Of a stretch of DNA of 64,000 nt, positions 5,677 through 32,665 are shown in pieces; within the stretch, counting starts at the first letter, position 1, and each line of letters begins with the position of its first letter. The stretch spans positions 64,421 through 128,420 of the forward strand of contig JBJETW010000009.1 of assembly GCA_051883515.1 (NCBI GenBank). The letters run 5' to 3'. The DNA comes from Candidatus Onthoplasma sp. GTDB lineage: Bacteria > Bacillota > Clostridia > Christensenellales > UBA1242. Made by a program: the position numbers and the translations under genes. The notes beneath the pieces are model-generated. The model had not been told where the DNA came from. It ran no database searches and saw only the letters and a list, made by a program, of their open reading frames with translations.

Positions 5677-5757
5677 TTTGCGTTATTGATTGTTTTTTTG
5701 CCTTTTTTATTTGACAATTTTATTTAATTATATAAAATTGATATTATAGGGGTAAAA

Positions 5758-6537
5758 ATGAACAAACGAAAACGTTCCAAATTAGGAATTGTTGTCAATA
5801 TACTTATAATCATACTCATTCTTGCACTGATTGGCAGTGGATTTTTGCTCTATTTTAATTTAAATAAAGACATAGGTCTTGGTTCAATAATGCTCCCAAA
5901 TTTAACGATTAAATTTGAAACATCGACGAGTGGAAAGAGTGAAATTGCGTTTGATAACACAACAAATGTCATGCCTGGAGAATCGCTCAACAATGAATCA
6001 AATTTGTCTGTCACAATGAAATCTTTCAATTCGACATATTTAATTGTCCTTTATGCACTTGAAGCGCAAAAGAATTTAGACGGACAAGTTATTGAAGATT
6101 CATTCGATAAACCAATTTTAGACATAGGATATAATTATATAAATTCCGTAAATTCAACTTATGAAAAAAATTCTATGAATAGTGACAAATGGATCGATTA
6201 TGTGTGCAGTTTAGATGAGAAAGTTGGCGACACAATCGTCACTAACAAATACAGATGTCTTGTTTCACCTTTGACATGGGAAAATGAAGATAGTCCTATA
6301 TGTGTAATACAATCTGGAGAGTTTAGATTGCATAGAGTTGGGATTGACGATAAATATCAAGATTCAACTTTAAAATTTTCTTTTCAAGCGTACGGAATAT
6401 CAAAGAATGACGAAAATTTGGCAGGAGTTAACTTTTCAAATTTAACCGTAGAAGAAAAATGTGCAAAAATTGTGAAAGCAATTCACAAATCATTTGGTGA
6501 AAAATTCAATTTTTATCAAGGAGAAACAATAATTTAG
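5758..6537 (+). CDS. hypothetical membrane-anchored/secreted protein
   Basis: Basic N-terminus plus one TM (LGIVVNILIIILILALIGSGFLL); no family recognised. Confidence 0.55.
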   Translation: MNKRKRSKLGIVVNILIIILILALIGSGFLLYFNLNKDIGLGSIMLPNLTIKFETSTSGKSEIAFDNTTNVMPGESLNNESNLSVTMKSFNSTYLIVLYALEAQKNLDGQVIEDSFDKPILDIGYNYINSVNSTYEKNSMNSDKWIDYVCSLDEKVGDTIVTNKYRCLVSPLTWENEDSPICVIQSGEFRLHRVGIDDKYQDSTLKFSFQAYGISKNDENLAGVNFSNLTVEEKCAKIVKAIHKSFGEKFNFYQGETII

Positions 6538-10075: not shown

Positions 10076-11128
10076 ATGACAAGAGAACAATTAGACGAAT
10101 TGAGCATCTACACTCTTCGCGAATTGGCACGAAAAATTGGTGTTGCCTCTCCAACAAGCAAGAAAAAAGATGATTTAATAAATGGAATAATTGAAATCCA
10201 AGAAGGGAAGGTTGCTCCATATGTTGCAAAGACAAAGCAAGGAAGACCTCCAAAAGGGCTCGGATATGATTTTTCGAACGTGTTTAATAGTCCGGTTTCA
10301 GCGAGTTTTGCTTTAAAACAGAACACTGGAGACGAAAACGAAATTCTCGGTTCAGTGGTCGGATTTGTTGAGATTTTGGTTGGCAATTCTGCATTTTTGT
10401 GGGTAAATGTTGACGAAGATTATGTTTGTTATTATATTTCACCTGAAATAACAATTCAGTGCAATTTAAAAACTGGTGACAAGGTTAAAGCAAGCGTCAA
10501 AGTCGAAGATAACCAAATGTTGGTTGAAAAAATAAATTCAGTCAACGGCGGAGAATGCAAAATCGTAAATAGAAATGATTATTTTTCAATTGACCACATT
10601 TGTCCATCAAGACCAATGAAATTTTCAAAAGAAGAAAACAAAAAATTGGGAATAATGTATGGCGAAAGCGTATATTTTTATGGTTCTAACAATAACAACA
10701 ACACTCTTGCAATTGCAAGTCTAGTTGAAGATGCACAAAACGTTGAAAAAATTTATCTAAACATTTCAATTGCAGATAAAAACAAATATTTGTTGCAGAA
10801 TTTTAAAGATTCGGAAAAGTTTATCTCTCAAATAACAAATTCAGTGGATATGGCAAAGAAAATCGTCGGTTTGGCAGTTGAAAGAGCAAAACGCGCAATG
10901 GAAAGTGGAAAAGATGTTTTGCTTGTTGTTGATGACGTCAATTCAATCAGTTCACTTGTTGAAATGGACGATTCAATTTTAAAAAATCTCATGGTTGTCA
11001 CAAAAAATTCAACGCTCGGTTCAATAACACTTTTTGCAATAATTCCAAACAGACAAATTTCTTGGTATGAAAAACTTGCAGACAAAAGATTTAAAATTGA
11101 AAATGAAAAAATAGAAGAGTTAATTTAA
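10076..11128 (+). CDS. Rho-like protein lacking a Walker A motif
   Basis: Rho_N ([15 protein letters not shown]), Rho CSD-like region ([14 protein letters not shown]...[18 protein letters not shown]), RecA-like core with [10 protein letters not shown], but GSNNNNNT where Rho has PPKAGKT. Confidence 0.7.
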   Translation: [350 protein letters not shown]

Positions 11129-18802: not shown

Positions 18803-19486
18803 ATGGACAGCATTCTATATTTAATTTTATTATCAACAACGAGTGTGGTTGCATTGTTTATTATTGCAAAATTGTTGGGCAAAAAACAAGTTGCACAACT
18901 TGATTTCATTGACTATGTGATAGGAATTTCAATTGGCTCAATTGCGGCAGAAATGGCAACAGACGTCAATGATAAACCGCTATATTATTATTTAATTGCG
19001 ATGGCAATTTACTTTTTGTTTGACTTGTCGATAACGCTGTTAGGTAGAAAGTCTCCCGGATTAAAACATTTTCTCAAAGGAAGACCATTAACAATAATTT
19101 ACAATGGGGAAATTGATTATAAAATTCTAAAGAAAAGCAAATTGGACATCAACGATGTTTTAACTCTTGCTCGTGCGCAGGGTTATTTTGATTTGCAAGA
19201 TATTGCATATGCGGTGTTTGAAAATAATGGAGAACTAAGTATAATGCCAAAAGGAAACCAGCGACCAACTGTTGCGAAAGATTTAGGTATAAAAGTGGAC
19301 AGGGCGGAACTGCCATTATACTTGGTTATTGATGGAATTATTTCAAAATCGTCACTGAATGAAATAAAAAAAGATAAAGAGTGGTTATTTTCTCGTTTAA
19401 AAATTTCCAAACGAAGTGAACTAAAAAAAATAATATTGGCAAGTTATGACAAAGAAAAAGACAAATTAACCATAACATATAAGTAA
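18803..19486 (+). CDS. DUF421 (YetF-like) membrane protein
   Basis: LLGKKQVAQLDFIDYVIGISIGSIAAEMA plus a C-terminal soluble domain, typical of YetF/DUF421. Confidence 0.7.
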   Translation: MDSILYLILLSTTSVVALFIIAKLLGKKQVAQLDFIDYVIGISIGSIAAEMATDVNDKPLYYYLIAMAIYFLFDLSITLLGRKSPGLKHFLKGRPLTIIYNGEIDYKILKKSKLDINDVLTLARAQGYFDLQDIAYAVFENNGELSIMPKGNQRPTVAKDLGIKVDRAELPLYLVIDGIISKSSLNEIKKDKEWLFSRLKISKRSELKKIILASYDKEKDKLTITYK

Positions 19487-19517
19487 TAAATCAGCAATTT
19501 TATCTTTTTAAAAAATT

Positions 19518-21122
19518 CTATTGGTTAATAAAAATTTTAACTAAAAATATAAAGATGTTAAATAAGCATAACAAAAAAACACCTATAAAATAGATGTTTT
19601 TCGCTGGTGCAGTTTGAATGTCAAAGCACGAACTTTGAGTATTAGTTAGAGCAGAATTTATCTGCTCTAATGTTTTTAAGTTTTCTTCTAGTGTTAGTTT
19701 TGGTTTATCTGGTGGTGTTGTAAAATTAAATAGTATTGTTAGTTTATCTTCATATAGGTATATCTGTCTAACAAAGGTGTTTATAATCAGTTTCCTTATC
19801 TTAATGTTTGTAGTATCTTCAAATACTTGTTTTCTTAAAAAGTGTTCTATTTCTTCCTTACTTAATAATGAATAATCTTTTAGTTTTTCTTTGTTTATTG
19901 CAATGTCTAGTTCTGCAAGTTCCGTTTCTAATTGTTGCAATCTAGTTTTTGTCATATCTGTTATTATTCCTTGTTCAATGGCTTTAAGTAAGTTTTGACT
20001 AGATTTATATACATCTTTTCTTTGCTTTTCAAGTAGTTTAAGAGTTGTGTTATCTTTAACCATATCTTGATGACAAGTATATATCTTATCTGCAAGCATA
20101 GAGATATTTTGTTCACTTCCTAAAAGATTAGATATTGAATTTATTACCATATCTTCTAAGAGTTGTTTTTGTATAGATTTCTTATCACAAGAACATCTCT
20201 TTTTTCTTTTTGATGCACAAGAGTAATAGTAATGAATTTCTTTTGTATGACTTGTTCCACTTTCACCAAACATTTTATGATTACATTTACCACAAATTAG
20301 TTTTCCAGAAAGTATATAATCAAAGATTTCTTTTTTTCTACTTGGTGCAAGTTTATTTTCTTCGTTTATAGCATTTACTTTGTTCCATAAAACATCATCT
20401 ATAATTCTAGGAAAGATTTTATCATAAACAACTCCGTGATGTTCTACTATACCTGTATATCTTGAATTGTGTAGTATCCATAAAACATATTTTTCATCAA
20501 AGTTTTTACCATTTATTCTATGATAACCTAAGTCGTTTAATGTTTCTGCTATAACTCTTGCTCGGTATCCGTTTGAATACATATCAAAAGCTTTTAATAC
20601 AATTTCTTTTTCATATTCGTTTACAACATATTTTTTGTTTACTATATCATATCCAAATATGTGATTTCCACCAGTAGCATTTCCTTTAAGCCAACTTTCT
20701 CTAAGTCCACGATTAACTTTTTGTGTAAGTTCTTCGCTGAAATATTGGTTAAAACCATCAAGTAATGCTTCCATTAAAGTTCCTTCAGGTGTATCAGGTA
20801 TATTTTCCATACACGATACAATTCTAACACCATTGTCTTTTAATGTTTTCTTGTGAATAACACTTTCATACTTGTTTCTGCTAAATCTATCTAGTTTGTA
20901 AACTAACACTAGTGAAAATTGATGGTTGCTACTATCTTTTAACATTTTTTGAAAAGCAACACGATTATCATTTGTTCCACTCATTGCTCGGTCAATGTAT
21001 GTGTCAACAATGACAATATCATTTTTTTCTGCATAATCTTTACAAACTCTAAGTTGTCCTTCAATACTTTGCTCGGTTTGACTATCCGAAATATATCTAG
21101 CATATATTACAGCTGTTTTCAT
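19518..21122 (-). CDS. large serine recombinase (integrase)
   Basis: N-terminal resolvase domain AVIYARYISDSQ...SIEGQ, recombinase domain, Cys-rich zinc ribbon (CGKCNHKM...CSCDKK), coiled coil; last 30 codons lie in host DNA beyond attL. Confidence 0.92.
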   Translation of the reverse strand: MKTAVIYARYISDSQTEQSIEGQLRVCKDYAEKNDIVIVDTYIDRAMSGTNDNRVAFQKMLKDSSNHQFSLVLVYKLDRFSRNKYESVIHKKTLKDNGVRIVSCMENIPDTPEGTLMEALLDGFNQYFSEELTQKVNRGLRESWLKGNATGGNHIFGYDIVNKKYVVNEYEKEIVLKAFDMYSNGYRARVIAETLNDLGYHRINGKNFDEKYVLWILHNSRYTGIVEHHGVVYDKIFPRIIDDVLWNKVNAINEENKLAPSRKKEIFDYILSGKLICGKCNHKMFGESGTSHTKEIHYYYSCASKRKKRCSCDKKSIQKQLLEDMVINSISNLLGSEQNISMLADKIYTCHQDMVKDNTTLKLLEKQRKDVYKSSQNLLKAIEQGIITDMTKTRLQQLETELAELDIAINKEKLKDYSLLSKEEIEHFLRKQVFEDTTNIKIRKLIINTFVRQIYLYEDKLTILFNFTTPPDKPKLTLEENLKTLEQINSALTNTQSSCFDIQTAPAKNIYFIGVFLLCLFNIFIFLVKIFINQ

Positions 21123-21155
21123 TTTTTATTTTCTCCTTTTATATTTATTTTTTTA

Positions 21156-21309
21156 TTTGTCTTTCGGACGAAAGCGAAAAGAAACGAAAAGGGATAATTT
21201 GCTTAAATTTTTTAATATTTATTTTTATTGTCAAGGGTTGCCTTAAAGCAATACATTTTACCCTTGACAATAAAGAGTTTTCGTTTAGACTTCGCTTACG
21301 AAAGACAAT
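21156..21309. repeat. nested inverted repeats between recombinase and rep genes
   Basis: Outer ATTGTCTTTCG (21156-66)/CGAAAGACAAT (21299-309); inner 12-bp ATTGTCAAGGGT (21227-38)/ACCCTTGACAAT (21260-71). Confidence 0.75.
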
Positions 21310-22184
21310 CAATAACCCTTTGGCAATTTATTTATTAGTTCTTTATCTTTGCTTACTTGACCTAAAAATTCGCCAGTTTCAAAGTCCAAGCATTTGAAAT
21401 CATCAAACAAAAGTATTTTTCTATCTTCTTGACCGATAGTGCAAACAACATCTTCTTCTACAATGTCAGTTATGAAATATGTTTGTAAGTGTCTTGAATA
21501 AATGACTTTCTCGCCAGTTTTGTTAATGTATTTGGTTATATAACTTACTGCATCTTGAATACTATTTTCATCTAGTGGTCTAAAATCATTTCTTCCAAAT
21601 CTTTCTAAAAAATGTGTATTTTGTAATGCTATTTGCATTTGGTGTGTTTTAGTAGAATAATCTTTTGTTTCAATAATCTCGCCAACCATTTGTGGTATTA
21701 AGAATATTCCGTGAAAATGTAATCGTTTAAGGTCAGGACTTCGTTCAAAAACTCCTACATATTTCCATTTTTTCCTATATGCTAAATGATTTAAGCAATT
21801 TAATAATTTCGTTCTAAATTCTTCTTCAGTTAATTTGGTAGAGTCATAAGTAAAAGTGCAAAAGTGAGTCCATTGTTGTAATCTAATTTTTCTAATCAAT
21901 CTTGTATATCTAACAATTCTATTTCTTTTATCTTTTTCCAGTGTTTTATTTACCAATTCAGTAGATTTTTCAATATCTTTAATTTCTTCATTAACTTTGT
22001 TTATTGTGTTTTCTAATTTTTCTTTCTTCGTTCCTGTGCTTTCTTTGTATATTTCTTTTACTTTTTCTTCTCTTGTATCTTTTTCTTTAGGTTTGTTTTT
22101 TCTTTTCTTATGTGGTTGTGTTGTGTGAGGTATGCCAATGTAATGACTACCATCAAAATACACTTTAGTTTTTGGATAGTCCAT
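21309..22184 (-). CDS. HUH-superfamily rolling-circle Rep/relaxase-like protein
   Basis: Motif order FCTFTY ... RLHFHGIF (HUH) ... VSYITKYINK (YxxKY). Confidence 0.7.
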   Translation of the reverse strand: MDYPKTKVYFDGSHYIGIPHTTQPHKKRKNKPKEKDTREEKVKEIYKESTGTKKEKLENTINKVNEEIKDIEKSTELVNKTLEKDKRNRIVRYTRLIRKIRLQQWTHFCTFTYDSTKLTEEEFRTKLLNCLNHLAYRKKWKYVGVFERSPDLKRLHFHGIFLIPQMVGEIIETKDYSTKTHQMQIALQNTHFLERFGRNDFRPLDENSIQDAVSYITKYINKTGEKVIYSRHLQTYFITDIVEEDVVCTIGQEDRKILLFDDFKCLDFETGEFLGQVSKDKELINKLPKGY

Positions 22185-22299
22185 TTTGCACCTCGCTTTT
22201 CCTGTGTAGCAACATTTGATTTAACATTGCCACAAAGAACTCGTTGTCAATAACGGATAAGTCCAACTCGTTCACAAATTCGATTTTTAAGTTTTGCAT
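22165..22299 (-). CDS. possible 44-aa ORF overlapping the rep start
   Basis: GGAG 10 nt upstream of the ATG; MQNLKIEFVNELDLSVIDNEFFVAMLNQMLLHRKSEVQNGLSKN; overlaps rep by 20 nt; below the track cutoff. Confidence 0.3.
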   Translation of the reverse strand: MQNLKIEFVNELDLSVIDNEFFVAMLNQMLLHRKSEVQNGLSKN

Positions 22300-22330
22300 A
22301 AATTTTTAACTCCTTTTTTTAGATTTTTGG

Positions 22331-22371
22331 AGTCAAAAAAGACATAGAAAAAGTTTTTAGTTTTTTCTATG
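22331..22371 (-). terminator. intrinsic terminator-like hairpin upstream of small ORF/rep
   Basis: 10-bp stem CATAGAAAAA/TTTTTCTATG followed on the minus strand by TCTTTTTT. Confidence 0.6.
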
Positions 22372-22800
22372 CCTAAAATGCTAACTCTGCCTTGTATTAA
22401 CCCCAAGGACGGGTTTTGGGCTTTTTTATTCGCCACTATCTTAACTTATTACTCGTCTTTGTCAATTTAGGTTTCTTATTCGACTCAGTGTAATGTCCCA
22501 AGCTTGTGATTACACAAAAAGCATATTCCAAAGTTTTGAAAAAGTGAATGTATGGTCAAGGTAAATGTTGGTTATATACTAGTGTAATTTTTGTATTAGG
22601 TGGCATTTACATTCTTACATTAGTATAAAACTCAAAGAAATACCATTGACTCTATACTTACCATTAACTTAAACTTAATTGAGTAAATATATTTTTTGTG
22701 CTGACTTGGTAATTACATTTTGAAGGTATCATAAAGTAACATATCTTTACCATAAACTTTTCATTCGTTTATGTATCATTTGTGTATCAAAATTATAACA

Positions 22801-23120
22801 CCCTCTATATAAAAGGCACGAGAAAGGCAAAAATAAACCCCCTAAGTGTCAATTTTTTTGAAATTTGCTTAAATTTTGTGAAAATTGCACATAAAATTGA
22901 TACCATTACACTTATAAGCCACGAAGATAACAAAAGTTCGTGGTTTGAGTAAAAATTTCTTATACCTTCTATATATAAGCCACGAAATAAGTAAAAAGTT
23001 TCCATTTAGTATCAAATTTTTTGAAATGCCTTCTATATATAAACCACTAAAAGTGTGATTTGAGGGGGTATAAAAAGACAACTTTTTTTGATTATCATAC
23101 CTTCACTTAATAGCCACGAA
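22801..23120. repeat. five degenerate iteron-like direct repeats
   Basis: Core (T/C)CTTCTATATATAAGCCACGAA at about 22801, 22901, 22963, 23027 and 23098; last four spaced 62-71 bp. Confidence 0.7.
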
Positions 23121-23155
23121 AATTGCAAAAATTGACGGTCTAATATAAAATTTTA

Positions 23156-23779
23156 TTAAATACAATATGCAAGGTATCTATCTTTAAACTTTTTTCTGCG
23201 TTTATATACCTTGTCTGAACTAATATCTAAAAATTCTGCTATATATTTTGGTTCAACACCATTGTAGTAATATTCCAGTATTTGCATTTCAAGTTTTGTT
23301 GTTACTATTTTTCGTATAATCTCATTTGCTTTAGAATAATCTACTTGTTCTTCAAACTGGTCTTTTGCTGGTAAAAATTCAAGCAATTCTTCATTTTCAG
23401 TATTTCCATTTTTAAGTTCTTTTCGTATGTATGCAGATAAACTTTTAAAACAAGCATTTCGTATAGTTATTATTTGTGGTTGTTTCACTGTTGGTTTTAT
23501 GTAAGTGCAATAATCTCCAAGTCTTTTATCTAAAAACTTTAATAGGAACAAACTTGCTTCTTGAACTAAATCATAAGCATCAGAATAGCAATCCAATTCT
23601 TTATGATGAGCAATATCATATTGTAATTGCTTGTGTAATCTTTCAATTTTACTAGTATTAGAGTAAGCATAATTCTTAAAATGTTTTAAACTGCTTATAG
23701 CAATAATTTTAGATAACTTTTCTATGTTATCCATTGTGATGATTGTGTTATCATCTAAAATACCAATTCTTTTTTCCAT
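23156..23779 (-). CDS. sigma-70-family/region-4 HTH regulator
   Basis: Region-2-like DLVQEASLFLLKF and region-4-like LEMQILEYYYNGVEPKYIAEFLDISSDKVYKRRKKF. Confidence 0.6.
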   Translation of the reverse strand: MEKRIGILDDNTIITMDNIEKLSKIIAISSLKHFKNYAYSNTSKIERLHKQLQYDIAHHKELDCYSDAYDLVQEASLFLLKFLDKRLGDYCTYIKPTVKQPQIITIRNACFKSLSAYIRKELKNGNTENEELLEFLPAKDQFEEQVDYSKANEIIRKIVTTKLEMQILEYYYNGVEPKYIAEFLDISSDKVYKRRKKFKDRYLAYCI

Positions 23780-23797
23780 AACAATTTTCTCCTTATT

Positions 23798-23986
23798 CGC
23801 CTTTTGGCAAAGTGGCTTAGGAGCATAGTTTGGCTAAAAAGAAAAACCCTTGTATTATCTAATACAAGAGTCAAGGATAAAGAAAGAAATATTGTGTTTA
23901 AGGAAATTGCATTAGGTGTAACCTAAAAGCAATATTTGTTTCCCTTGACTAAGGGGAAAACTATGCTACAAAAGACACCAAAAGCG
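23798..23986. other. ~190-nt extended imperfect hairpin (5 nested helices + side hairpin)
   Basis: Pairs CGCCTTTTGG/CCAAAAGCG, GCATAGTTT/AAACTATGC, GTCAAGG/CCTTGAC, AAATATTG/CAATATTT, TTAGG/CCTAA; side hairpin CTTGTATTA/TAATACAAG. Confidence 0.65.
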
Positions 23987-24362
23987 ATAAGGAGATATGT
24001 GAAAACATAGATACAAGAATTTGGAATAAATTTAAAAACTCATAAAGTTTTAATTTGTGTATATGCAAATATGTTTTTGTAGCATAAAAATAGCCGAGTG
24101 GAATAAAAAAAGAGGTTTTGCAGAAAGCCTGCGTGCAAACCTCTTTTTCACTCGGCGTTTTGCTTTAGCAATTTGCCTTGTTTTATTTAGTTTTTTGTTT
24201 AGGCGTGTGTTTGTCTGTTCGAGCGAAGCGAGAACACTTGTATCAAGACAAGCACACGTTTAAATGCCAAAGTTTTTATAAATATCTATACAGTCTAATC
24301 AATAATGTGCTATACTAATATAAAGGATTAATTTAAATTTATATCGTGATTAGGAGGAAAAA

Positions 24363-24974
24363 ATGATTGAAATTTTATTTTCAATACCGATTTATGCTTT
24401 TAGTGAAGATGTATTACATAAAAATTATCAAAAATGTTTAAATGGGTCTATTCAACATGTAAACAATGGAGATACAGAATTACAAAAACGAATTCACTTT
24501 AATTCAAATCATAAAAACCAGTTAATCTATAAAAATTATATAATTGGTTTTTTAGATGTAGTTTATGATAAGGGTGATATAACGTTTGACAGATATTTAA
24601 TGACAACAGATAAGAGCATGTATACAAATAAAGAAAGAAAAAAGATGTTCCTTCAATTAGAATCCGAAAGTTTATCTAAAAAAGATCGCGATTTATTATG
24701 GTATAAATGGCAAGCAACAAAGAAAGTTTTATATAGAATGAGCTATGGAACCAATAAGAAACATTATATGGGAAATGAAAAAATATCTGGCTTTCATATT
24801 TATAATTTAAGCGGGAGATCAAATTCAGAGATATTATTAGAGTTGGAAGAAGATATTAATTCAATAGTGAATGATACAAAGCAAATATATGGCAATACTT
24901 TATATTTTGATTTTAGAAATTTTAACTTTATAAAGAAGTATATTGATTTTAATCATTTATTTAATAGTAACTAA
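24363..24974 (+). CDS. hypothetical protein (cargo gene 1)
   Basis: AGGAGG SD; 203 aa; no motif recognised; 62 nt upstream of cargo gene 2. Confidence 0.6.
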   Translation: MIEILFSIPIYAFSEDVLHKNYQKCLNGSIQHVNNGDTELQKRIHFNSNHKNQLIYKNYIIGFLDVVYDKGDITFDRYLMTTDKSMYTNKERKKMFLQLESESLSKKDRDLLWYKWQATKKVLYRMSYGTNKKHYMGNEKISGFHIYNLSGRSNSEILLELEEDINSIVNDTKQIYGNTLYFDFRNFNFIKKYIDFNHLFNSN

Positions 24975-25036
24975 TAAACAATGAACTTGTTTTAGTTAAA
25001 ATATTACTAATTAAACTTTGGAGTGAATATTTTGAA

Positions 25037-27607
25037 ATGAGAACACATTTTGATAAAGAACAACTATGGAATAATATAAAAAATTGCGGTATCTTTAATA
25101 GTTATGAAGAATTTTTAGATAAATCGAATGATTACCTCGGCTGTTTTGTATGGAGAAAATACCCTTCTGAACCATGGATAAAAGACAACATTTTTATCGG
25201 CTCACATGAAGAGTTACTTATTTGGTATAAAACAAATACAGAGGTTCCGTTTTTTTATAGTAAATTTAAAAACAAAAAATACAAATCATTATTAATAAAA
25301 GATTTTTATGTTAATTTTGTCGATGGTAAAAGAGTGATTTTTGCACAATGCATATGCGACTGCGGAAACAAATGTTGTAAGGCTTTTGAAGGAATACGCA
25401 AAGGAAATACTGGTACTTGTGGCTGTCGTGGTAAAAAGCAAGAACAAAGTCTAATTGAAGCATACCCCGAAATGGTTGAAAAATATTGGGACTTTAAGAA
25501 AAATTGTGCTGAACCAAATTCTATAAAATATAATTCGGATACGAAATATCTTTGGAAGGGATACAATACAAGTTTTTTGATGTCTCCAAAAGAGCTGTTA
25601 AAAAATCTTAATAATTCTACTTCTTTTCCAGAACAGTCGATTGTTTTTTTCTTAAAACAGTACTTCAATAATGTTGAAAGCAGAACAAAAATATTATATA
25701 ACAATAAAAAATACGAATTAGACATCTATATGCCAGAGTTTAAGATTGGAATAGAATATGATGGGGAAAGATGGCATAAAGACAAGTATGAACAGGAAAT
25801 TGAAAAGAATAATGCCGCAATTGCTAACGGAATATATTTGATTCGAGTTCGAGAATCTGGATTGAAAATAATTAAATCTAAGAATGTAAAAAATATTATA
25901 TGTGATATTGAAAATTATACGTATTATGAAGCTATTGCTAATTGTATTAATGAAATATTTGATTTTCTAAAAGCAAAATTGAATTTGAGCAATTTTCATA
26001 ATATAACAAAGCATAATATTATACAAAGTAAAATACAAATAATGTCGCAATATATGTTAAACTTTAAAGAGGATTCAATAGAGTTATCATGGCTTAATCA
26101 ATTTTGGTCCGACAGTAATCAAATTGAGGCATATAAGGTTTCGCAAAATTCTTCAGATCGGTTTGATTTTAAATGTCATAATGGTGAAAAAATAAATATC
26201 CCCCCATATGTTGTTAATAATGTTTTGAATAGATTAAAGGATGAACAACAAAACGAATTTAAAGAAAAATTGCTATATAAAGGGATTACGGGAGATGATT
26301 ATTGCCCTTTCGTAGATCTTCCTTATTGTCCTTGTAATCGTATTTATCATAATGAAGATTGTAAGCCTTGCCAACTTTTTGATAACTATAAAAATAATAC
26401 AATTTATGCAACTCCTTTTAAAGAAACAGAAAAAACATTTAATGTGACTTTTAAAAAAGTTGCAGAAGATATTGATTCATCAACAAACAAATATCATTTT
26501 AGAACAGCATTAATTAATTTGTTAATGTATAAAATCGGTAATAGAGATAGAGTTATAAATAAATTTTGTAAATCTGATATAATCTCTGACAATCAAAAAG
26601 TTGTTTTATTGAGTAATTGTATTTATTGGCCAGAATTTGAATATATAACAACCAAAAAGTTATTTGAAAATAGTTCATTATTGCAGTTGTTTTTCACAAA
26701 CTACGATTATAATAAAATTTCATTTATGGACGAAAATATACTTGATTTATTTCACGAATATGTTATTTATGATATTTTAAAATCGTTAGTATTAATGAAA
26801 GATTTTGATTTGTTAGAAAAAGCATTGAATATAATAAAACAAAATGTAGAAGCAAATTTTTTTATTAATATTGTCTATGCTCTAGTTTTACAGATTGTGT
26901 TAAAATCAGGTGAAAAGTTTAATAAACTATTTAATCGTAAGCAAGGATTTATATCATTTTATAACTTATTAAACAACTTATTCGAAAACGAAATACCGCA
27001 TCGCATTAAAAGTATTTTTGAAGAATTTTTATGTGGAGACGATGTGGTTGATATTCAATATAAAATACAATGTTCATATTTCGGAGATTTAATAGATAAA
27101 TTGATTATAAAAAAATCTATTGATAAAGAAATTTTAGTTAAAATAGCTTTAAAATTTGAGAAAACGACAAAATTTACCCAGTTTATCAAATCTAAAATTT
27201 TAAAATATAAAAAATCAATACCATTAGAGTTAATAAAACCATTAAATTCATTAGCGGATATACAGAATAGCTATAATGATTATTTGGCTAGATGTAATTC
27301 TATGATTCCTTGTAAAAATTGGGTTATAGACTTGACAGATATTAAAGATATTAAACTGTTGAATAGTTTGATTCGACAAAATTTGTTATTTAAATTTGAC
27401 TATGAATTAGTTATTAAGAAAAAGAAATACGATATCTTTGAAAAGTTTATTCAATTAATAAGTGCACAAGAAATTTGTGTAGATGACTTTATATGCAATA
27501 AAGAACACATTGCACAATTATTAAAAAAAACAAAAAGGCAAAATTTAGTAAAATTTGCAGATGATATAAGTAAAAATTCTATTCTCGGCAGGAAAAAATA
27601 TAATTAG
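25037..27607 (+). CDS. 856-aa zinc-ribbon-like / PD-(D/E)xK (Vsr/DUF559-type) nuclease-domain protein with large uncharacterised helical C-terminal region (cargo gene 2)
   Basis: CICDCGNKCC..TGTCGC; YWDFKKNCAEPN...LWKG and FWSDSNQIEAYKV...FKCHNG modules flanking YELDIYMPEFKIGIEYDGERWHKD. Confidence 0.6.
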   Translation: MRTHFDKEQLWNNIKNCGIFNSYEEFLDKSNDYLGCFVWRKYPSEPWIKDNIFIGSHEELLIWYKTNTEVPFFYSKFKNKKYKSLLIKDFYVNFVDGKRVIFAQCICDCGNKCCKAFEGIRKGNTGTCGCRGKKQEQSLIEAYPEMVEKYWDFKKNCAEPNSIKYNSDTKYLWKGYNTSFLMSPKELLKNLNNSTSFPEQSIVFFLKQYFNNVESRTKILYNNKKYELDIYMPEFKIGIEYDGERWHKDKYEQEIEKNNAAIANGIYLIRVRESGLKIIKSKNVKNIICDIENYTYYEAIANCINEIFDFLKAKLNLSNFHNITKHNIIQSKIQIMSQYMLNFKEDSIELSWLNQFWSDSNQIEAYKVSQNSSDRFDFKCHNGEKINIPPYVVNNVLNRLKDEQQNEFKEKLLYKGITGDDYCPFVDLPYCPCNRIYHNEDCKPCQLFDNYKNNTIYATPFKETEKTFNVTFKKVAEDIDSSTNKYHFRTALINLLMYKIGNRDRVINKFCKSDIISDNQKVVLLSNCIYWPEFEYITTKKLFENSSLLQLFFTNYDYNKISFMDENILDLFHEYVIYDILKSLVLMKDFDLLEKALNIIKQNVEANFFINIVYALVLQIVLKSGEKFNKLFNRKQGFISFYNLLNNLFENEIPHRIKSIFEEFLCGDDVVDIQYKIQCSYFGDLIDKLIIKKSIDKEILVKIALKFEKTTKFTQFIKSKILKYKKSIPLELIKPLNSLADIQNSYNDYLARCNSMIPCKNWVIDLTDIKDIKLLNSLIRQNLLFKFDYELVIKKKKYDIFEKFIQLISAQEICVDDFICNKEHIAQLLKKTKRQNLVKFADDISKNSILGRKKYN

Positions 27608-27638
27608 GTGGTATGAAATATCATCATACCCCTTTTTG
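27607..27638 (+). terminator. intrinsic terminator after cargo gene 2
   Basis: GGTATGA/TCATACC stem plus T5. Confidence 0.7.
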
Positions 27639-27838
27639 AAATGTGAAATTGATTTTTAATTTCAACATATTTAATATCATCATAATTAAATTTGAATACA
27701 TTATAATAGAATTTTAAGTATAAATCATTATTCATGATATTTGTAAGAAAACTATGTATATAAGTAAATTCCAAACCAATCTCTACTAAAAAATAACACG
27801 AACTTTGAGTTGTTTTCAAGGTTCGTGTTATTCATGTT

Positions 27839-27894
27839 TGGTGCCGGTGGACGGGGTCGAACCGTCATGATGTTGCCATCGCAAGATTTTGAGT
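27839..27894 (-). pseudogene. displaced 3' 56 nt of tRNA-Leu(CAA) (att repeat copy)
   Basis: Identical by eye to 32070-32125; ends in the anticodon loop. Confidence 0.9.
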
Positions 27895-28209
27895 TATTTT
27901 AACACTTTTTTAAATAGTATTATAGAGTGTTATTTTTGATTATATAAATCCTTACAAAACCCCTATAAATAAAGGAAATTCTTGACACTGACTGATTAGA
28001 TAATCCCTTATAGTGTTATCTTCTATTCAGCCTGTGTTTTTTAGTGTTTGCCGGAACTTTTACCATTTTTTGTTAGAAAAGTTAATAAATTCTGTCACTG
28101 TTTCTTGAATTTGAGAATTTCATATACTATAATAAATTTGTAATAATTAAAGTTGTAAGGTTGTTCATAATTGTTGTGAATAACCTTTTGTATTAATAAG
28201 GAGACAATT

Positions 28210-28635
28210 ATGGACAAGTGGGAAAAAGAAATGATTGAAAACAATAAACGAGCGTCAGCAGAGACTGAAAGAATTAATAATGAGATTTTGCAAATTCCAA
28301 GTTATTTAACAGATGAAGAAAAAGTTGCTTACGGCGAAATTGTACAAACATTAAAAGACAGCATTAAATATAGATTATCTTCCACTGATGCTGAACTTAT
28401 ATGGCAATATTGTCAAATAAAGATAATGAGAGATAGGGCTTGGCGAGAATATAATAAAAATCCAGATAGATATATTAGAATTGTTACAGGAATTTGCAGT
28501 GATGGAAAAACTCCAAAAGTTATGGTTAAAGAAAACGAGCATTATAAAACCTTAATTGACTGCAACAAACAACTTGAAAAGATATTAAAGGATTTGAGAT
28601 TGACGCCAGAAGCAAGAGCTAAAAAGAGATTTTAG
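28210..28635 (+). CDS. phage terminase small subunit, P27-family-like
   Basis: Size (141 aa) and C-terminal LRLTPEARAKKRF resemble the P27 TerS pattern (ELGLTPSSR). Confidence 0.65.
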   Translation: MDKWEKEMIENNKRASAETERINNEILQIPSYLTDEEKVAYGEIVQTLKDSIKYRLSSTDAELIWQYCQIKIMRDRAWREYNKNPDRYIRIVTGICSDGKTPKVMVKENEHYKTLIDCNKQLEKILKDLRLTPEARAKKRF

Positions 28636-28677
28636 AACACAAGCATTTTTGTTTGTGTTCTTTTAAAGGGAGAATTT

Positions 28678-29220
28678 ATGGAAGAATTAAAAATAGAATA
28701 TATAGAAATTGAAAAATTAAATCATTATGATAACAACTCAAAAATTCACACAAAAGAACAAATTGAACATATTGCTAACTCAATAAAAGAATTTGGATTT
28801 AATGACCCGTTAGGAATTGCAGGAGAAGATAATATTGTTTTAGAAGGCAATGGACGTGTAGAGGCTGCAAAGTTGTTAGGAATGAAAAAACTCCCTTGTG
28901 TTAGGCTCGACCATTTGACAAAAGAAGAACAACAAGCTTATATCATTGCACATAATTCTTTAAATTTAGAAACAGGTTTTGATGATGGGATATTATTCCA
29001 AGAATTAAAGAGATTACAAGAATTTGATTTCACAGACTTTGGCATTGATGTTGATAAATATCTAAAAACTTGCATTAGAGTTCAAAAAAGATTGTTGAAA
29101 CCCATAAAGAAGGTTCACTATTTGATTAGTATAGATATAAATAAAAATGACCAAATAGCACACCTGATTGACAGAATAAAAAGAATTGAAGGAGTAGAAA
29201 TTGAGTCCACAACCAACTAA
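28678..29220 (+). CDS. ParB/Srx-fold N-terminal domain protein (no methylase domain)
   Basis: IEIEKLNHYDNNSKIHTKEQIEHIANSIKEFGFNDPL...LEGNGRVEAAKLLG typical of ParB-like nuclease domains fused to phage DNA methylases. Confidence 0.75.
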   Translation: MEELKIEYIEIEKLNHYDNNSKIHTKEQIEHIANSIKEFGFNDPLGIAGEDNIVLEGNGRVEAAKLLGMKKLPCVRLDHLTKEEQQAYIIAHNSLNLETGFDDGILFQELKRLQEFDFTDFGIDVDKYLKTCIRVQKRLLKPIKKVHYLISIDINKNDQIAHLIDRIKRIEGVEIESTTN

Positions 29221-29749
29221 AACAGATAATAAATCTATTGCAAATAAGATATTTATCAGAAAAGAAGCAATTAAAAATTTAAAAGAAGCAAGAGTTTTAG
29301 ACTTGTTCGCTGGCAGGAATGTCCTTTGGAATAACATAAAGACAGATAAATATTTTGGAATAGATATAGCAACGAATAAAGGCAAGAACTTAAATGCAGA
29401 CACAAGACAAGTTTTTGATTCAATAGATTTAAGCGAGTTTAATGTGATAGATTGTGATAGTTATGGAATTGCTTTTGATTTATATAAAAAGATATTAACG
29501 AATCCAAATATTAAGAAAGGCACAATAATTATTTACACCTTAATCACTAACGAATTTACAAAAATTCAAAATGAAGCAAAAAAAGAGTTTAATTTTAAAC
29601 ATTTTTATGATAAAGCACCTTCTCTTTTTAATGCCAGAGCTATTGAGTTCTATTATGAAATGCTCGCATATTATGGAATTAAAGAAGTAAACTATTATGC
29701 CATAAGAGACAAATTTGACAAACATTATGGATATTTTATTATAAATTGA
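29201..29749 (+). CDS. RsmD/Trm1-like Rossmann methyltransferase-like protein with atypical motifs
   Basis: AAGGAG - 6 nt - TTG start; VLDLFAGRN (motif I-like) and VIDCDSYG (motif IV position). Confidence 0.5.
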   Translation: MSPQPTKTDNKSIANKIFIRKEAIKNLKEARVLDLFAGRNVLWNNIKTDKYFGIDIATNKGKNLNADTRQVFDSIDLSEFNVIDCDSYGIAFDLYKKILTNPNIKKGTIIIYTLITNEFTKIQNEAKKEFNFKHFYDKAPSLFNARAIEFYYEMLAYYGIKEVNYYAIRDKFDKHYGYFIIN

Positions 29750-29784
29750 TATAAAAAATTGTCAATTTATGATATAATCATTGC

Positions 29785-30606
29785 ATGAGTATAATTTACA
29801 GACCTTGTGGAATGGCGAGAGAATATAGTCCTTATGCTTTAAATATTTACATAGGTTGCAGTCATAGATGCAAATATTGCTATGCTCCACACACATTGCA
29901 ACGTTCAAGTGAAAGTTATTTTGGAAAACCTGAGCCAAGAAAAGATATTTTAAAATTACTTGAAAAAGATTTAAAAAAGAACAAATACACCGAGCAAGTT
30001 CTTTTATCTTTTGTTGGCGATTGTTATTGTGACAGTGTGGACAACGGCGAAACGGTTAGAGAGGTTTTAAAATTATTAAATTACTATAAAGTTCCGGTTG
30101 CAGTTCTTTCTAAAGGTGGCAAAAAAATGCTAAGAGATTTGGACCTGTTTAAAGAATTTGGCGATAGGATTACTGTTGGAACAACCCTAACTTTTTTAGA
30201 TGAAAAGAAATCAAAAGACTGGGAACCTTTTGCTTCCACTCCAAGTGAAAGATTGGAAACTTTAAAAGTTTTGCATGATAACGGAATAAAAACCTTTGCA
30301 AGTTTTGAGCCAACAATCGAACCCGAAGAAAGTTTAAAACTGATTAAGAAAACGCTTGAATTAGACTGCGTTGACCATTACAAAATAGGGAAAATTAACA
30401 ATTACAAGTCCGCTGATAAGTGGCAAGATTGGGAAAAATATTTGCAAGACTGCGTTAATTTGTTAAGACCTACAGGAAAGCAAGTATATTATAAATTTTG
30501 CCTAAGAAAACTTGCGCCAAATATTGAATTAACAGATGCCGAAAAAAATCCTGATGAATATATAGTAAGAACAAATTTGCCGAAACAGACAAGTTTATTT
30601 GACTAA
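29785..30606 (+). CDS. radical SAM protein, SPL/SplB (DNA photolyase-like) family
   Basis: IGCSHRCKYCYA CxxxCxxC cluster near the N-terminus; overall pattern of COG1533-type enzymes. Confidence 0.8.
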   Translation: MSIIYRPCGMAREYSPYALNIYIGCSHRCKYCYAPHTLQRSSESYFGKPEPRKDILKLLEKDLKKNKYTEQVLLSFVGDCYCDSVDNGETVREVLKLLNYYKVPVAVLSKGGKKMLRDLDLFKEFGDRITVGTTLTFLDEKKSKDWEPFASTPSERLETLKVLHDNGIKTFASFEPTIEPEESLKLIKKTLELDCVDHYKIGKINNYKSADKWQDWEKYLQDCVNLLRPTGKQVYYKFCLRKLAPNIELTDAEKNPDEYIVRTNLPKQTSLFD

Positions 30607-30703
30607 GTTTTAATGCTATAAAATGAGTAAATTTTAAAAAAATAAGAATTTTGATTTATTATTATAATAGAATAGAAAATAATTACTACTTATAGGTGAA
30701 AAT

Positions 30704-31111
30704 ATGTTTACAGGTTATTTCGGGAAACTTAAAAGTTATCCTAAGACACGTGGATATAGATTTGTATCAATTGCGAGATTTAATAAATTCTGGAAAGGCG
30801 AAGAATTTAAAAAACTTGCTCCACCTGCTGATATTATTAAAATTGAAGATGCAGAACTTTACACGAAACTTTATTGTGAAAAAGTTTTGAACAAACTAAA
30901 TCCACAGGAAGTTTATGAAGAACTCGGAGAAAATGCGGTGCTACTTTATTATGAAAATTGGGATGACATAAAAGAAGGTAAAACTTTTTGCCATAGAAGA
31001 ATTGTGGCAAAATGGTTAGAAAATAATTTAGGATTAAAAATAGAAGAATTGGATAATGAAATCAATGATAAACAAAATTTAAAAAAGACTTATAAAAAGA
31101 AATTTAATTAG
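30704..31111 (+). CDS. DUF488-like protein
   Basis: MFTGYFGKLK...SIAR...LAPP...LLYYEN...FCHRRIVAKWL pattern typical of phage-type DUF488. Confidence 0.55.
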   Translation: MFTGYFGKLKSYPKTRGYRFVSIARFNKFWKGEEFKKLAPPADIIKIEDAELYTKLYCEKVLNKLNPQEVYEELGENAVLLYYENWDDIKEGKTFCHRRIVAKWLENNLGLKIEELDNEINDKQNLKKTYKKKFN

Positions 31112-31262
31112 ATGAGCCTAAATTCTTTGTTTTATAAATAAATTATTGGATTATTTTTCTTTTAGGCATATTTAAGTGTGCAATAAGCACCACTTTTGTA
31201 TGTTTCTACTATATGACAAACGATGATATCGCTATTATCAATTATCCATTCGTTGCGTTTAA

Positions 31263-31955
31263 CTATTTTTTATTGCTGACAAAGTTAAAAGACCAAAGAT
31301 TGAAAAATTTAAAGCAAGTTTTTATTCAGCAGATGAAATTGAGAAATTGTTTGAAGCTATCAAAGAACACGAATGCAGATTATCTATAATGTTAACTGCA
31401 ATGTGTGGATTTAGATGAAGCGAAGTTTTAGGACTTAAATGGCAAGCAATAGATTTTGATAACAAATTAATCTATGTTCAACATAAAGTTATAGAAACTC
31501 AACTTGATGGCGAAAGGTTGATATACAAAGCTGACAAAATGAAAAATAAGACAAGCCATAGAGTTCTACCACTCTTACCACAATTAGAAGAATTGCTGTT
31601 AAAGAAAAAAGAAAGCATTGAGAAAAACAAAACAATGCTTGGTAAATCTTATAATGACAAATACTTCGATTATGTTTGTGTTGATAATATTGGAAGATTG
31701 ATTTTGCCTAATAGATTAACTAAAAACTTTATTAAGATATTAAGAAAGAATAACTTGCGAAAGATAAGATTTCACGATTTAAGGCACTCTTGTGCGAGTA
31801 TAATGCTTGCCAATGGTGTTCCAATGAAACAAATACAAGAATGGTTAGGTCATTCAATATTCCAAACCACCAATGATATTTACACTCACTTAGACATTAA
31901 TGTTAAAAAAGAAGATATATTAAATCTTTATAAAGATTTATATCCAAAATTTTGA
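31263..31955 (+). pseudogene. tyrosine integrase remnant (N-terminally truncated, in-frame TGA at 31416)
   Basis: ...CGFR*SEVLGLKWQAIDFDN...RFHDLRHSCASIML...LGHSIFQTTNDIYTHL; only ~230 codons; box I Arg, HxxR and the catalytic Tyr region recognisable. Confidence 0.85.
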
Positions 31956-32033
31956 CCCAACTTTTGACCCAACTTTTTTGCCTAAAACTTGATTTTTTGT
32001 CATTTTCACGCACTTTTAATTTGACCCAATAAA

Positions 32034-32063
32034 AATAAAAAAAACACCTATAAAATAGATGTT
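32034..32063 (-). terminator. terminator of tRNA-Leu
   Basis: AACATCTA-TTTTA-TAGGTGTT hairpin plus T-run on the minus strand; part of the att repeat. Confidence 0.7.
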
Positions 32064-32069
32064 TTTCGC

Positions 32070-32155
32070 TGGTGCCGGTGGACGGGGTCGAACCGTCATG
32101 ATGTTGCCATCGCAAGATTTTGAGTCTTGTGCGTCTGCCATTTCGCCACACCGGC
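32070..32155 (-). tRNA. tRNA-Leu(CAA), class II, encoded CCA
   Basis: GCCGGTG acceptor, GCG/CGC D-stem, anticodon arm CAAGA-CTCAAAA-TCTTG, long variable arm, GACGG-TTCGACC-CCGTC T-arm, CACCGGC-A-CCA. Confidence 0.93.
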
Positions 32156-32431
32156 ATATTTTGATTAAGATAATTTGTTCGTCTTGAAACTTTACAATTG
32201 CTAAGCACAAGACTTTCAGGTTCCCACAAAACACACCGTGTTGCAGTGGGGAGAGGAACAACCGACCAAAGGGCGCTGTTTGTGAGTTCACTCATCAAAC
32301 GAGCAAAAGGTCGAGTTGCGACGAGCGTCTGCCATTTCGCCACACCGGCATATTTGGATAAAGATAATTTGTTCGTCTTGAAACTTTATAATTAACAAGT
32401 ACAAGACTTTCAGGGTTCCCACAAAACACAT
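32131..32431. repeat. ~105-bp direct repeat (tRNA-Leu 5' 25 nt + ~80 nt upstream) x2, 195-bp period
   Basis: 32131-32235 vs 32326-32431, about 8 mismatches by eye; the copies enclose a G+C-rich 90-bp unique segment. Confidence 0.85.
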
Positions 32432-32630
32432 CATTTTACTATTGCCGTGTTTTTGTTGTATCAAAACATATAATAAAATTTTGATAACATGTTAAATATA
32501 ACATATATTTTTTGTTTTGGCAAGAGATTTTTAAAATTTTGTCTATTCTTTTATTATTTTAAATGGTTAAAAAATATAATCAATATAAAATTCAAGTTGG
32601 AATTCAAGACAATATCGTTGAACAATTTGA

Positions 32631-32659
32631 TTGTAAAAAGGTGAGTTTTGTGTTATAAT
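32631..32659 (+). promoter_or_regulatory. polA promoter (possibly giving a leaderless mRNA)
   Basis: TTGTAA - 17 nt - TGtTATAAT; the -10 ends 7 nt before the ATG at 32666. Confidence 0.55.
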
Positions 32660-32665
32660 ATAATT

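Follow-up and report, generated by a model that had tools for sequence, protein, structure and literature searches.

The 64,000-nt stretch of Candidatus Onthoplasma sp. DNA analysed here (contig JBJETW010000009.1, positions 64,421 to 128,420; hereafter the window) carries an 8.2-kb mobile element with a two-gene cassette that encodes proteins of 203 and 856 amino acids (aa). The cassette is a self-contained, horizontally moving unit, and its site is one where known defence systems are otherwise found. The larger product is a predicted DNA-binding endonuclease with a Vsr-like core, and the smaller one is an orphan. We give somewhat better than an even chance to the reading that the cassette is a nuclease-based defence or exclusion system directed against incoming DNA, be it that of phages, plasmids or rival elements.

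A mobile cassette in a cargo slot shared with defence systems

An earlier reading of this DNA from its letters only (the sequence-only reading) had described the cassette as cargo of a mobile element, taking up 3.2 of its 8.2 kb and furnished with a promoter and a terminator of its own. The cargo status and the proportions were borne out: both open reading frames (ORFs) lie where they had been placed (Table 1), and a 38-nt repeat of the tRNA-Leu 3' flank plus TGGTGC bounds the element at 19611-27838. Integrated at the 3' end of tRNA-Leu, the element carries, besides the cassette, genes for a sigma-70-like protein, a rolling-circle Rep (PF23343) and a large serine recombinase. The two cassette genes are on the same strand (+) with a spacing of 62 nt, and a terminator scan of the window found no terminator-like site between them. 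The whole of 24190-27639 recurs as a single block of 91% identity in L001, one of the contigs of another organism (L001-L004; fetched loci are numbered in this way throughout) whose flanks are otherwise unrelated, and the terminator marks the end of the unit common to the window and L001. As for the signals, the stem-loop with its T-run and the extended -10 site were both found, but the promoter consensus is not above chance, with 39 promoter-like matches in the scanned sequence versus 35 expected from shuffled AT-rich sequence. A promoter call from the consensus match by itself is weak, and it is mainly conservation that points to a cassette promoter: the 170 nt 5' of the 203-aa gene accompany the cassette into another genome at about 90% identity.

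Both cassette genes are real and under purifying selection. The ratio of nonsynonymous to synonymous substitution rates (dN/dS) is 0.09-0.36 in each compared segment of the two genes, and 0.2-0.28 in the 203-aa gene. The genes are mosaics of recombined alleles, and segments of the nuclease gene differ in dS from 0.07 to more than 1.4. One recombination breakpoint falls at about 25150, within the 5' end of the nuclease gene, so that the 203-aa gene and this 5' end (the first 40 or so codons) move together. Further recombined patches lie at 26960-27236 and at the 3' end. Positive selection was considered for the variable C-terminal patch of the nuclease and found to be unsupported, since dN/dS is about 0.15 there and the pattern is that of recombination. 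Shuffling of alleles by recombination is common among conflict genes.

The cassette begins just beyond a conserved structured motif that was found in 22 fetched loci (among them L185, L186, L189, L190, L193, L194, L196, L016, L020 and L104), and the sequences of these loci diverge within a few bases after ...AAATGCCA. Beyond this junction the window and L001-L004 carry the 203 + 856 cassette, and L099 carries a Bro-N protein (PADLOC PDC-S13, 8e-120) followed by a 203 + 858 pair. Diverged nuclease homologues are found there in L016, L020 and L104. A CBASS cyclase (5e-43) and a SAVED effector (9e-13) take this place in L189, followed by a DpnII-type restriction endonuclease (1.5e-63) and a methyltransferase (9e-107), while L186 has an IetA-like AAA ATPase (5e-35). 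In L200, where the motif was undetected, the Menshen proteins NsnA (3e-79) and NsnB (8e-66) and methyltransferases are located at the corresponding position by the sigma-like gene. The defence reading gains strong contextual support from the location of the cassette at a junction where sister elements carry defence systems.

The abundance of the cassette among related elements was assessed in a sample of 80 metagenomic loci collected by Rep (42-86% identity), with up to 10 kb on each side and both flanks full in about two dozen. The recombinase lies beside Rep in nearly all of these loci, and the sigma-like gene is present in many. Neither the nuclease gene nor the 203-aa gene occurs in any of the 80 within the up to 10 kb covered on each side, which makes the cassette an accessory part of the element. 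Nuclease homologues near a homologous Rep and/or recombinase are known from L015, L016, L024, L092 and L104; a role for the nuclease as a core gene of the element family, suggested by the last four of these, was rejected on the count of 0 of 80.

Cassette copies recur beside known defence genes as well as in the defence-type slot, an observation that is qualitative in nature. Away from the Rep and recombinase element family, a SoFic gene (1e-45) lies directly upstream of the copy in L005-L007 (the P0004 copy), and further upstream of it L005 has weak defence-model matches only (AbiO-like 6e-5, PsyrA 4e-7). In L026 the pair is followed downstream by a Tsp45I restriction-modification (RM) pair. 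The sequence-only reading had seen in the cassette the usual shape of an anti-phage system. Its context agrees with this, through CBASS with RM and an IetA-like gene at the junction, Menshen at the corresponding position of L200 and SoFic, PDC-S13 and Tsp45I RM adjoining copies, but a two-gene system is not obligatory.

The nuclease, its helical domain and the orphan partner

The 856-aa family was aligned from 12 full-length relatives (24-89% identity), and the AlphaFold (AF2) model of the window's protein, with a predicted local distance difference test (pLDDT) score of 73, is confident at about aa 80-730. All peptide strings quoted in the sequence-only reading are present in the translation, and the architecture that it had proposed, a Vsr/DUF559-type nuclease between two degenerate zinc-ribbon modules, was upheld by matches to Pfam, PHROG and 3R3P and by alignment of the modules to each other. 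Residues of the core, to which the string YELDIYMPEFKIGIEYDGERWHKD (aa 226-249) belongs, include TSFPEQ, E227-x-D229, E240-Y-D242-G, H247, K250, K257 and E273. E227, D229, E240, D242, H247 and K250 are invariant in the 12 members, as are the E, D, E, G, H, K and E of the active site across 23 wider relatives. Pfam MTES_1575 matches the core in 10 of the 12 members and DUF559 in three, all below the Pfam gathering score, and PHROG families 559, 9902 and 3339 ('homing/HNH endonuclease' families) match it at 1e-10 to 1e-12. A core profile from 23 diverse relatives identified 3R3P, the catalytic domain of I-Bth0305I, in the PDB (E 5.8e-4; the sole match below 0.2), and the AF2 model of aa 193-290 is confident and forms a mixed sheet plus helices. 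Judged by the sequence matches the core is a member of the Vsr-like PD-(D/E)xK superfamily (Vsr/DUF559/MTES_1575/EDxHD) with intact active-site residues, and the 856-aa product is predicted to act as a DNA-binding Vsr-like endonuclease.

The modules that flank the core are homologous to one another (hhalign 94%, E 9e-8, aa 146-189 versus 352-395). The string YWDFKKNCAEPN..LWKG lies at aa 150-175 in the first and FWSDSNQIEAYKV..FKCHNG at aa 356-383 in the second. Pfam DUF4379 (PF14311, a treble-clef zinc finger) is matched by seven of the 12 aligned members at about aa 148-183 (best E 4.9e-7), and the window's own protein has no Pfam match to DUF4379 at E 0.1. The four zinc ligands of DUF4379 are not kept; no cysteine is conserved in module 1 of the family, and one (C380) is conserved in module 2. 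Zinc binding has probably been taken over by two separate cysteine clusters. In cluster 1, where the strings CICDCGNKCC and TGTCGC were located (aa 105-130), C105, C107, C109 and C128 are invariant and C130 nearly so in the 12 aligned sequences; this cluster is a presumed zinc site, and cluster 2 is presumed to form a second. Cluster 1 also resembles the CapR zinc motif (CxxC, 24-26 residues, CxC), a lead only, with no Pfam CapR match.

Structure comparison had been proposed for both proteins in the sequence-only reading. With Foldseek, the whole-chain model of the 856-aa protein gave weak matches only in the PDB, to the Vsr-like nuclease Bax1 (E 0.02), to AF1548 and to helical repeats, but strong matches among predicted viral structures (BFVD), where 58 fell below 1e-3 and the best reached 8e-11. 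These are phage and giant-virus proteins named 'homing endonuclease', 'treble clef zinc finger' or 'restriction endonuclease', and only the N-terminal half is aligned. Among 2.9 million viral contigs the generic core alone recurs (aa ~120-350, 24-46% identity), and neither the N-terminal 100 aa, nor the C-terminal domain, nor the full-length family was found there. A whole-protein profile of the family had no match among PDB sequences.

The C-terminal half and the 203-aa partner could not be placed by the sequence-only reading, and the present searches likewise returned no family and either no fold match or weak ones. Among 1.84 billion cluster representatives, a profile of aa 446-856 retrieved 16 clusters, all of this nuclease family. 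In the near-full-length proteins with this domain it starts at about residue 440 behind the same N-terminal half, and the other matches are short or partial. Sister clades have the N-terminal ~390 aa in common and C-terminal regions without detectable similarity. In the fold searches, resemblance was weak and to helical repeat proteins only. Judging by the profile search, the helical domain is specific to this nuclease family and is not reused with other effectors; a modular sensor shared with other effectors was accordingly rejected as a candidate.

The 203-aa protein is an orphan that could be assigned to neither a family nor a known fold. Its family comprises only 12 clusters among 5.8 billion proteins, profile search included, and searches of the protein and its 12 relatives against Pfam, NCBIfam, PHROG and PADLOC returned nothing consistent. 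The family profile has no match among PDB sequences. The AF2 model is alpha/beta with a pLDDT of 81, and in the PDB Foldseek found no fold match for it (best E 0.17). Invariant features of the family include an N-terminal strand LFxIxxY, Y59, G62, G71, K133-H134-Y135 and Y181-x-D183. No source of a 15-billion-protein collection holds a name for either cassette protein. The contexts of the distant 203-like relatives P0106 and P0107 were uninformative, as the contigs end there.

The sequence-only reading had proposed to look for co-occurrence of the two genes across genomes. About eight lineages do have a small gene upstream of a nuclease homologue, at distances of 2-63 nt where the two are adjacent and down to 30% identity, but the link is facultative in both directions, as each family also occurs without the other. 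The pairing sites are the window, L001-L004, L099, L100, the P0003/P0102 contig (where the pairing on one contig is deduced, not read directly), L005-L007, L026 and L037. In L005-L007 a 116-aa ORF sits between the small gene and the nuclease gene. The L026 pair consists of a 205-aa protein (30% identity) and, 2 nt further downstream, an 858-aa homologue (~32%). The small ORF of L037 is broken (129 aa; tblastn match 1331-1918), and the following 614-aa relative matches only aa 11-150. The phylogenies of partner and nuclease are discordant; the nucleases of L099 and the window share 90% identity, but their partners share only 42%. Upstream of the L016 nuclease are genes for a zinc ribbon of 84 aa and for a 153-aa protein; the latter is unrelated and was rejected as a diverged 203-like partner (hhalign probability 0.2%). 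In L008 a 203-like gene is followed by genes for 116, 1024 and 222 aa, and the 1024-aa protein was rejected as a nuclease relative.

The surroundings of these distant copies are of separate note. The element in L005-L008 is integrative too but of another kind; it encodes a tyrosine integrase and, in L008, also a MobL relaxase. These loci have in common a conserved block of the 203-aa gene, the 116-aa gene, a variable slot and a 161-aa gene. In L005-L007 this slot is occupied by the nuclease, and in L008 by the 1024-aa HTH/Flg_new-repeat protein and a 222-aa protein with a weak AbiU2-HEPN match. In L095-L098 the 203-like protein, at 208 aa and 34% identity the most distant one, is found between a PDC-M33C/DUF4391 pair and a bAvd-like 96-aa gene, and next downstream are a protein with a weak HamA/DUF1837 match and a DUF2971 (PDC-S31) protein. 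L095-L098 is thus another defence-island context, with different large neighbours.

A candidate defence system weighed against other readings

If the cassette is a defence system, the helical domain, together with the 203-aa partner where it is present, would restrain or direct the nuclease, and a cue from an invader would lead the nuclease to cut DNA, either that of the invader or the cell's own, as in abortive infection. The 203-aa protein would more likely be a regulator, adaptor or sensor than an essential antitoxin, since the nuclease persists alone in several lineages and since nearly identical nucleases tolerate very different partners. The cassette would be expressed as a unit of its own, from a promoter just past the origin-like motif to its own terminator.

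Several points weigh against this interpretation. As the sequence-only reading had already noted, no named defence system could be matched, and neither protein has a match in PADLOC-DB v2.0.0 at E<=1. The closest characterised relatives of the nuclease are selfish homing endonucleases and not defence proteins. The label 'sensor-like' that had been attached to the large domain amounts to an analogy only, as this domain is never joined to another effector. Nuclease homologues lack a 203-like gene in L009, L012, L014, L016 and L104, and 203-like genes lack the nuclease in L008 and L095. Furthermore, the far ends of the sister elements are not fixed by direct repeats, so that only the junction-adjacent genes are securely cargo. 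Serine recombinases leave no long repeats.

The arrangement of a small gene immediately upstream of a nuclease in one transcription unit invites comparison with an addiction module of the toxin-antitoxin (TA) kind, in which the 856-aa nuclease would be the toxin and the 203-aa protein its labile inhibitor, and which would stabilise the element with no host defence. The retention of the pairing down to 30% identity, the shuffling of partner alleles as in TA families and the ride on a mobile element all fit this proposal. A type II toxin would not be expected without its cognate antitoxin, whereas the nuclease is found with no 203-like gene in at least five lineages (those listed above), which suggests that it is not intrinsically lethal. 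A 90%-identical nuclease combined with a partner of only 42% identity, 203-like genes that occur without the nuclease and the persistence of most sister elements free of the cassette also speak against addiction, and we regard it as unlikely. Somewhat less likely again is a selfish, free-standing homing-endonuclease-like gene that is copied into cut empty sites without benefit to host or element, the 203-aa gene being a mere neighbour. The only significant solved relative of the core is the homing endonuclease I-Bth0305I, and in PHROG and BFVD it is phage 'homing endonucleases' that are matched, proteins in which a zinc module is likewise combined with Vsr, a layout known from such phage genes (PMC12350094). 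Solo copies between housekeeping genes (L009, L012, L014) and the mosaic segments of the nuclease gene could be explained in the same way. Against this, homing endonuclease genes (HEGs) have a compact architecture of about 250-500 aa with a terminal nuclease, and the family proteins are far above this size at 850-970 aa (856 aa in the window, with the nuclease central) and include a conserved 410-aa extra domain under purifying selection. The full-length family is absent from 2.9 million viral contigs, and the linkage to the 203-aa gene is recurrent. Instead of an intron, an intein or a gap between conserved genes of a phage, the cassette occupies a defined cargo slot, and it has a promoter-like site and a terminator of its own.

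Slimmer than the chance of homing is that of two independent single-gene functions meeting in a common hotspot, the 856-aa protein being a solitary restriction enzyme, for instance a modification-dependent one, and the 203-aa protein unrelated to it. The occurrence of each family without the other, the discordant phylogenies and the 116-aa ORF inserted between the pair in L005-L007 are consistent with independence. The adjacency in about eight lineages, with gaps of 2-63 nt and including a pair of 30% identity in a different backbone, is not, and neither is the lack of a terminator-like site between the pair in the window nor the breakpoint inside the nuclease gene, by which the small gene and the nuclease 5' end co-move. 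We consider it least probable that the nuclease serves the element's own cycle, either in DNA processing for rolling-circle replication or transfer, or in an attack on a helper or competitor, like the nucleases of the PLE satellite. Diverged nuclease homologues (34-43% identity) do occur on diverged recombinase + Rep elements in at least five cases, a satellite-like island adjoins the element, and PLE uses domesticated endonuclease relatives (PMC8096241, PMC9410903). The absence of the cassette from all 80 elements found by Rep shows on the other hand that it is dispensable for the basic cycle; the sibling slot holds CBASS + RM or an IetA-like gene, with Menshen at the corresponding position of L200, and copies of the nuclease exist that are remote from any Rep or recombinase.

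The defence reading can be taken one step further, to a claim that in our judgement falls a little short of an even chance: that the cassette represents a new defence family, in which an orphan-fold 203-aa protein is combined with a homing-endonuclease-derived nuclease gated by a helical domain, on undescribed tRNA-Leu serine-recombinase/Rep elements that use the origin-adjacent junction as a dedicated defence shuttle slot in gut Clostridia. The nuclease fold and the status of a nuclease as mobile-element cargo are familiar. The apparent novelties are the joining of a Vsr-like module to a private helical domain, the orphan nature of the partner and the absence of any PADLOC match. In the papers searched on DUF4379, EDxHD, MTES_1575, treble clef with Vsr and defence, and domesticated homing endonucleases, no such system is described. 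Should the cassette prove protective, the poorly sampled immune repertoire of gut Clostridia would gain a defence family in which both the 203-aa partner and the 410-aa helical domain are of unknown fold, and the cassette would be a further case of a homing-endonuclease module recruited for mobile-element conflict. Whatever the function of the cassette, the sequence after the ...AAATGCCA junction is cargo, and in the checked cases this cargo consists mostly of known defence systems, which makes unassigned cargo at this junction a good candidate source.

The element, its surroundings and known systems

The features of the cassette, of the 856-aa protein and of the element are collected in Table 1.

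Table 1. Features of the cassette, the encoded nuclease and the mobile element in the window
Feature	Position	Strand	Basis or remark
203-aa orphan protein gene (partner)	24363-24974	+	ORF and translation
856-aa nuclease gene	25037-27607	+	ORF and translation
Promoter-like site	24287-24316	+	-35 TATACA (weak, 24287), 18 nt, extended -10 TGcTATACT (24308-24316)
Ribosome-binding site AGGAGG	24352-24357	+	5 nt 5' of the ATG of the 203-aa gene
Intrinsic terminator	27610-27638	+	7-bp stem, then T-run; end of the unit common to window and L001
N-terminal conserved region, family-specific, aa 1-100 (W11, K41-Y42, P46-W47, N51, F53, G55, P71-F72)	25037-25336	+	alignment
Cys cluster 1, aa 105-130 (CxCxC, 18 residues, CxC, between beta-strands)	25349-25426	+	alignment and AF2
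DUF4379-like module 1, aa 146-189, W-x3-KN-x3-P ... WKG (W151, K155, N156, P160, W173, K174)	25472-25603	+	
Vsr-like PD-(D/E)xK nuclease core, aa 193-290	25613-25906	+	Pfam, PHROG, BFVD fold, PDB profile match
Helical linker, aa 296-337 of the 856-aa protein			alignment and AF2 model
DUF4379-like module 2, aa 352-395 (W357, N361, F378, C380)	26090-26221	+	
Cys cluster 2, aa 423-445 (C423, C431, C433, C445)	26303-26371	+	invariant or nearly invariant columns
All-helical C-terminal domain, aa 446-856 (~410 aa), with recombined variable patches	26372-27604	+	AF2 helices, confidence good to about aa 730
Left junction (attL), copy of tRNA-Leu 3' flank + TGGTGC	19573-19610		repeat of 32038-32075, diverging after TGGTGC
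Right junction, 56-nt copy of tRNA-Leu(caa) 3' part; also left att repeat of the adjoining 4.2-kb island	27839-27894	-	perfect repeat of 32070-32125
tRNA-Leu(caa)	32070-32155	-	
Serine recombinase ORF	19518-21122	-	runs across the left junction
Conserved structured motif at backbone/cargo junction	24202-24269	+	found in 22 fetched loci

The motif at the junction reads GGCGTGTGyTTGTC, a small variable hairpin and then CTTGTATCAAGACAAGCACACGyyTAAATGCCA, or CTTGTATCAAGACAAGCACACG..TAAATGCCA in short. It is composed of an inverted repeat, CGTGTGyTTGTC/GACAAGCACACG, around the small variable hairpin and a palindrome, CTTGTATCAAG, followed by TAAATGCCA, and the stem of the hairpin varies with compensatory changes between loci. 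The motif may be the nick site of Rep or a double-strand origin, and the element is probably mobilizable. A strong hairpin with a T-run (24093-24156; DNA fold -23 kcal/mol, z -6.3), partly conserved in L189, lies between the sigma-like gene and the motif and could be a single-strand origin or an insulating terminator. The non-coding region from Rep to the sigma-like gene contains three copies of a 26-nt direct repeat (22798-23051; 81-100% identical, spaced 164 and 64 nt), which look like iterons. Chromosomal flank supplies the last ~31 codons of the recombinase gene, whose product exceeds its homologues (496-499 aa) by about 35 aa. In the literature searches made on the nuclease no description of the element family was found, and none of these searches was aimed at the element family.

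The cassette of L001 abuts another tRNA-Leu (tag), with a homologous junction and a 22-nt attachment (att) repeat and without recombinase or Rep. Its repeats, at 5721-5922 and 10691-10712, comprise the 22-nt 3'-end repeat of tRNA-Leu(tag) and a duplicated flank with TTGGTGC, and two unassigned genes (226 aa and 80 aa) lie upstream of the cassette. Either decay of the element or its mobilisation in trans would account for this island. L016 has a nuclease of 36-43% identity as the last gene before tRNA-Leu (cag), on an element with a homologous recombinase and Rep.

Next to the element in the window, and in tandem with it, is a second island of 4.2 kb (27895-32069), bounded by a perfect 56-nt repeat of the tRNA-Leu(caa) 3' end. 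It encodes small-terminase-like and ParB-like proteins, a possible methyltransferase, a radical SAM protein and a tyrosine integrase reduced to its C-terminal 145 aa, and looks like a decayed phage-satellite-like element. A 95-nt direct repeat (32131-32225 and 32325-32419, 91% identical) covers the 5' half of tRNA-Leu and the region upstream of it; there is therefore a second, partial 5' copy of tRNA-Leu to the right of the intact gene, which hints at a further rearrangement or integration event. A search of 19000-33000 with Rfam identified tRNA only and no intron.

Among known systems, Shedu SduA and GmrSD are single-polypeptide nuclease defence systems with a variable regulatory domain, and their nucleases are of the DUF4263 or DUF1524 type. 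Like SduA and type IV restriction enzymes such as GmrSD, the cassette has no NTPase and joins a nuclease of the PD-(D/E)xK type to a large domain that is not catalytic. Like them it is carried on mobile elements among defence genes, and its N-terminal nuclease module is joined to unrelated C-termini in sister clades. The cassette differs from both in having no match to a PADLOC model, in its nuclease, which belongs to a Vsr-like subfamily and not to DUF4263 or DUF1524, in its optional upstream partner and in the lack of a recognisable modified-base reader domain.

The closest relationship of the core itself is to the EDxHD/Vsr-like homing endonucleases, of which I-Bth0305I is the prototype (PMC3239194), and to the zinc-finger-Vsr endonucleases of phages and giant viruses, with which it is homologous. 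In phage group II intron endonucleases, CapR-, DUF4379- and DUF723-like modules accompany an EDxHD/Vsr domain (PMC12350094), and in the cassette protein, as in phage HEGs, the core is flanked or preceded by small modules of the DUF4379/CapR kind that bind DNA (PMC12350094, PMC3239194). Unlike these enzymes, the cassette protein has a central and not a C-terminal nuclease, modules without zinc cysteines and two additional regions, a conserved stretch of 100 aa at the N terminus and a helical domain of 410 aa that is found nowhere else. Its gene is found outside introns, inteins and phage genomes, linked to an orphan partner and in a defence-type cargo slot.

Homing-endonuclease-type proteins that have been recruited for conflicts between mobile DNAs are exemplified by CapR and NixI of PLE and Odn of ICP1 (PMC8096241, PMC9410903, PMC8263062). 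The presence of a protein of this type on a small integrative element is a feature in common with the cassette, but CapR, NixI and Odn are of the T5orf172/GIY-YIG lineage and much smaller, and no evidence links the element of the cassette to a helper phage in the manner of PLE. The defence hotspots of P4-like satellites and integrative mobilizable elements differ from the element described here in that the latter has a large serine recombinase, a PF23343 rolling-circle Rep, a sigma-like gene and an origin-like motif, and gut Clostridia-type bacteria as hosts. What they have in common is the arrangement of the cargo itself, a sharp backbone junction followed by unrelated defence systems that alternate among sister elements.

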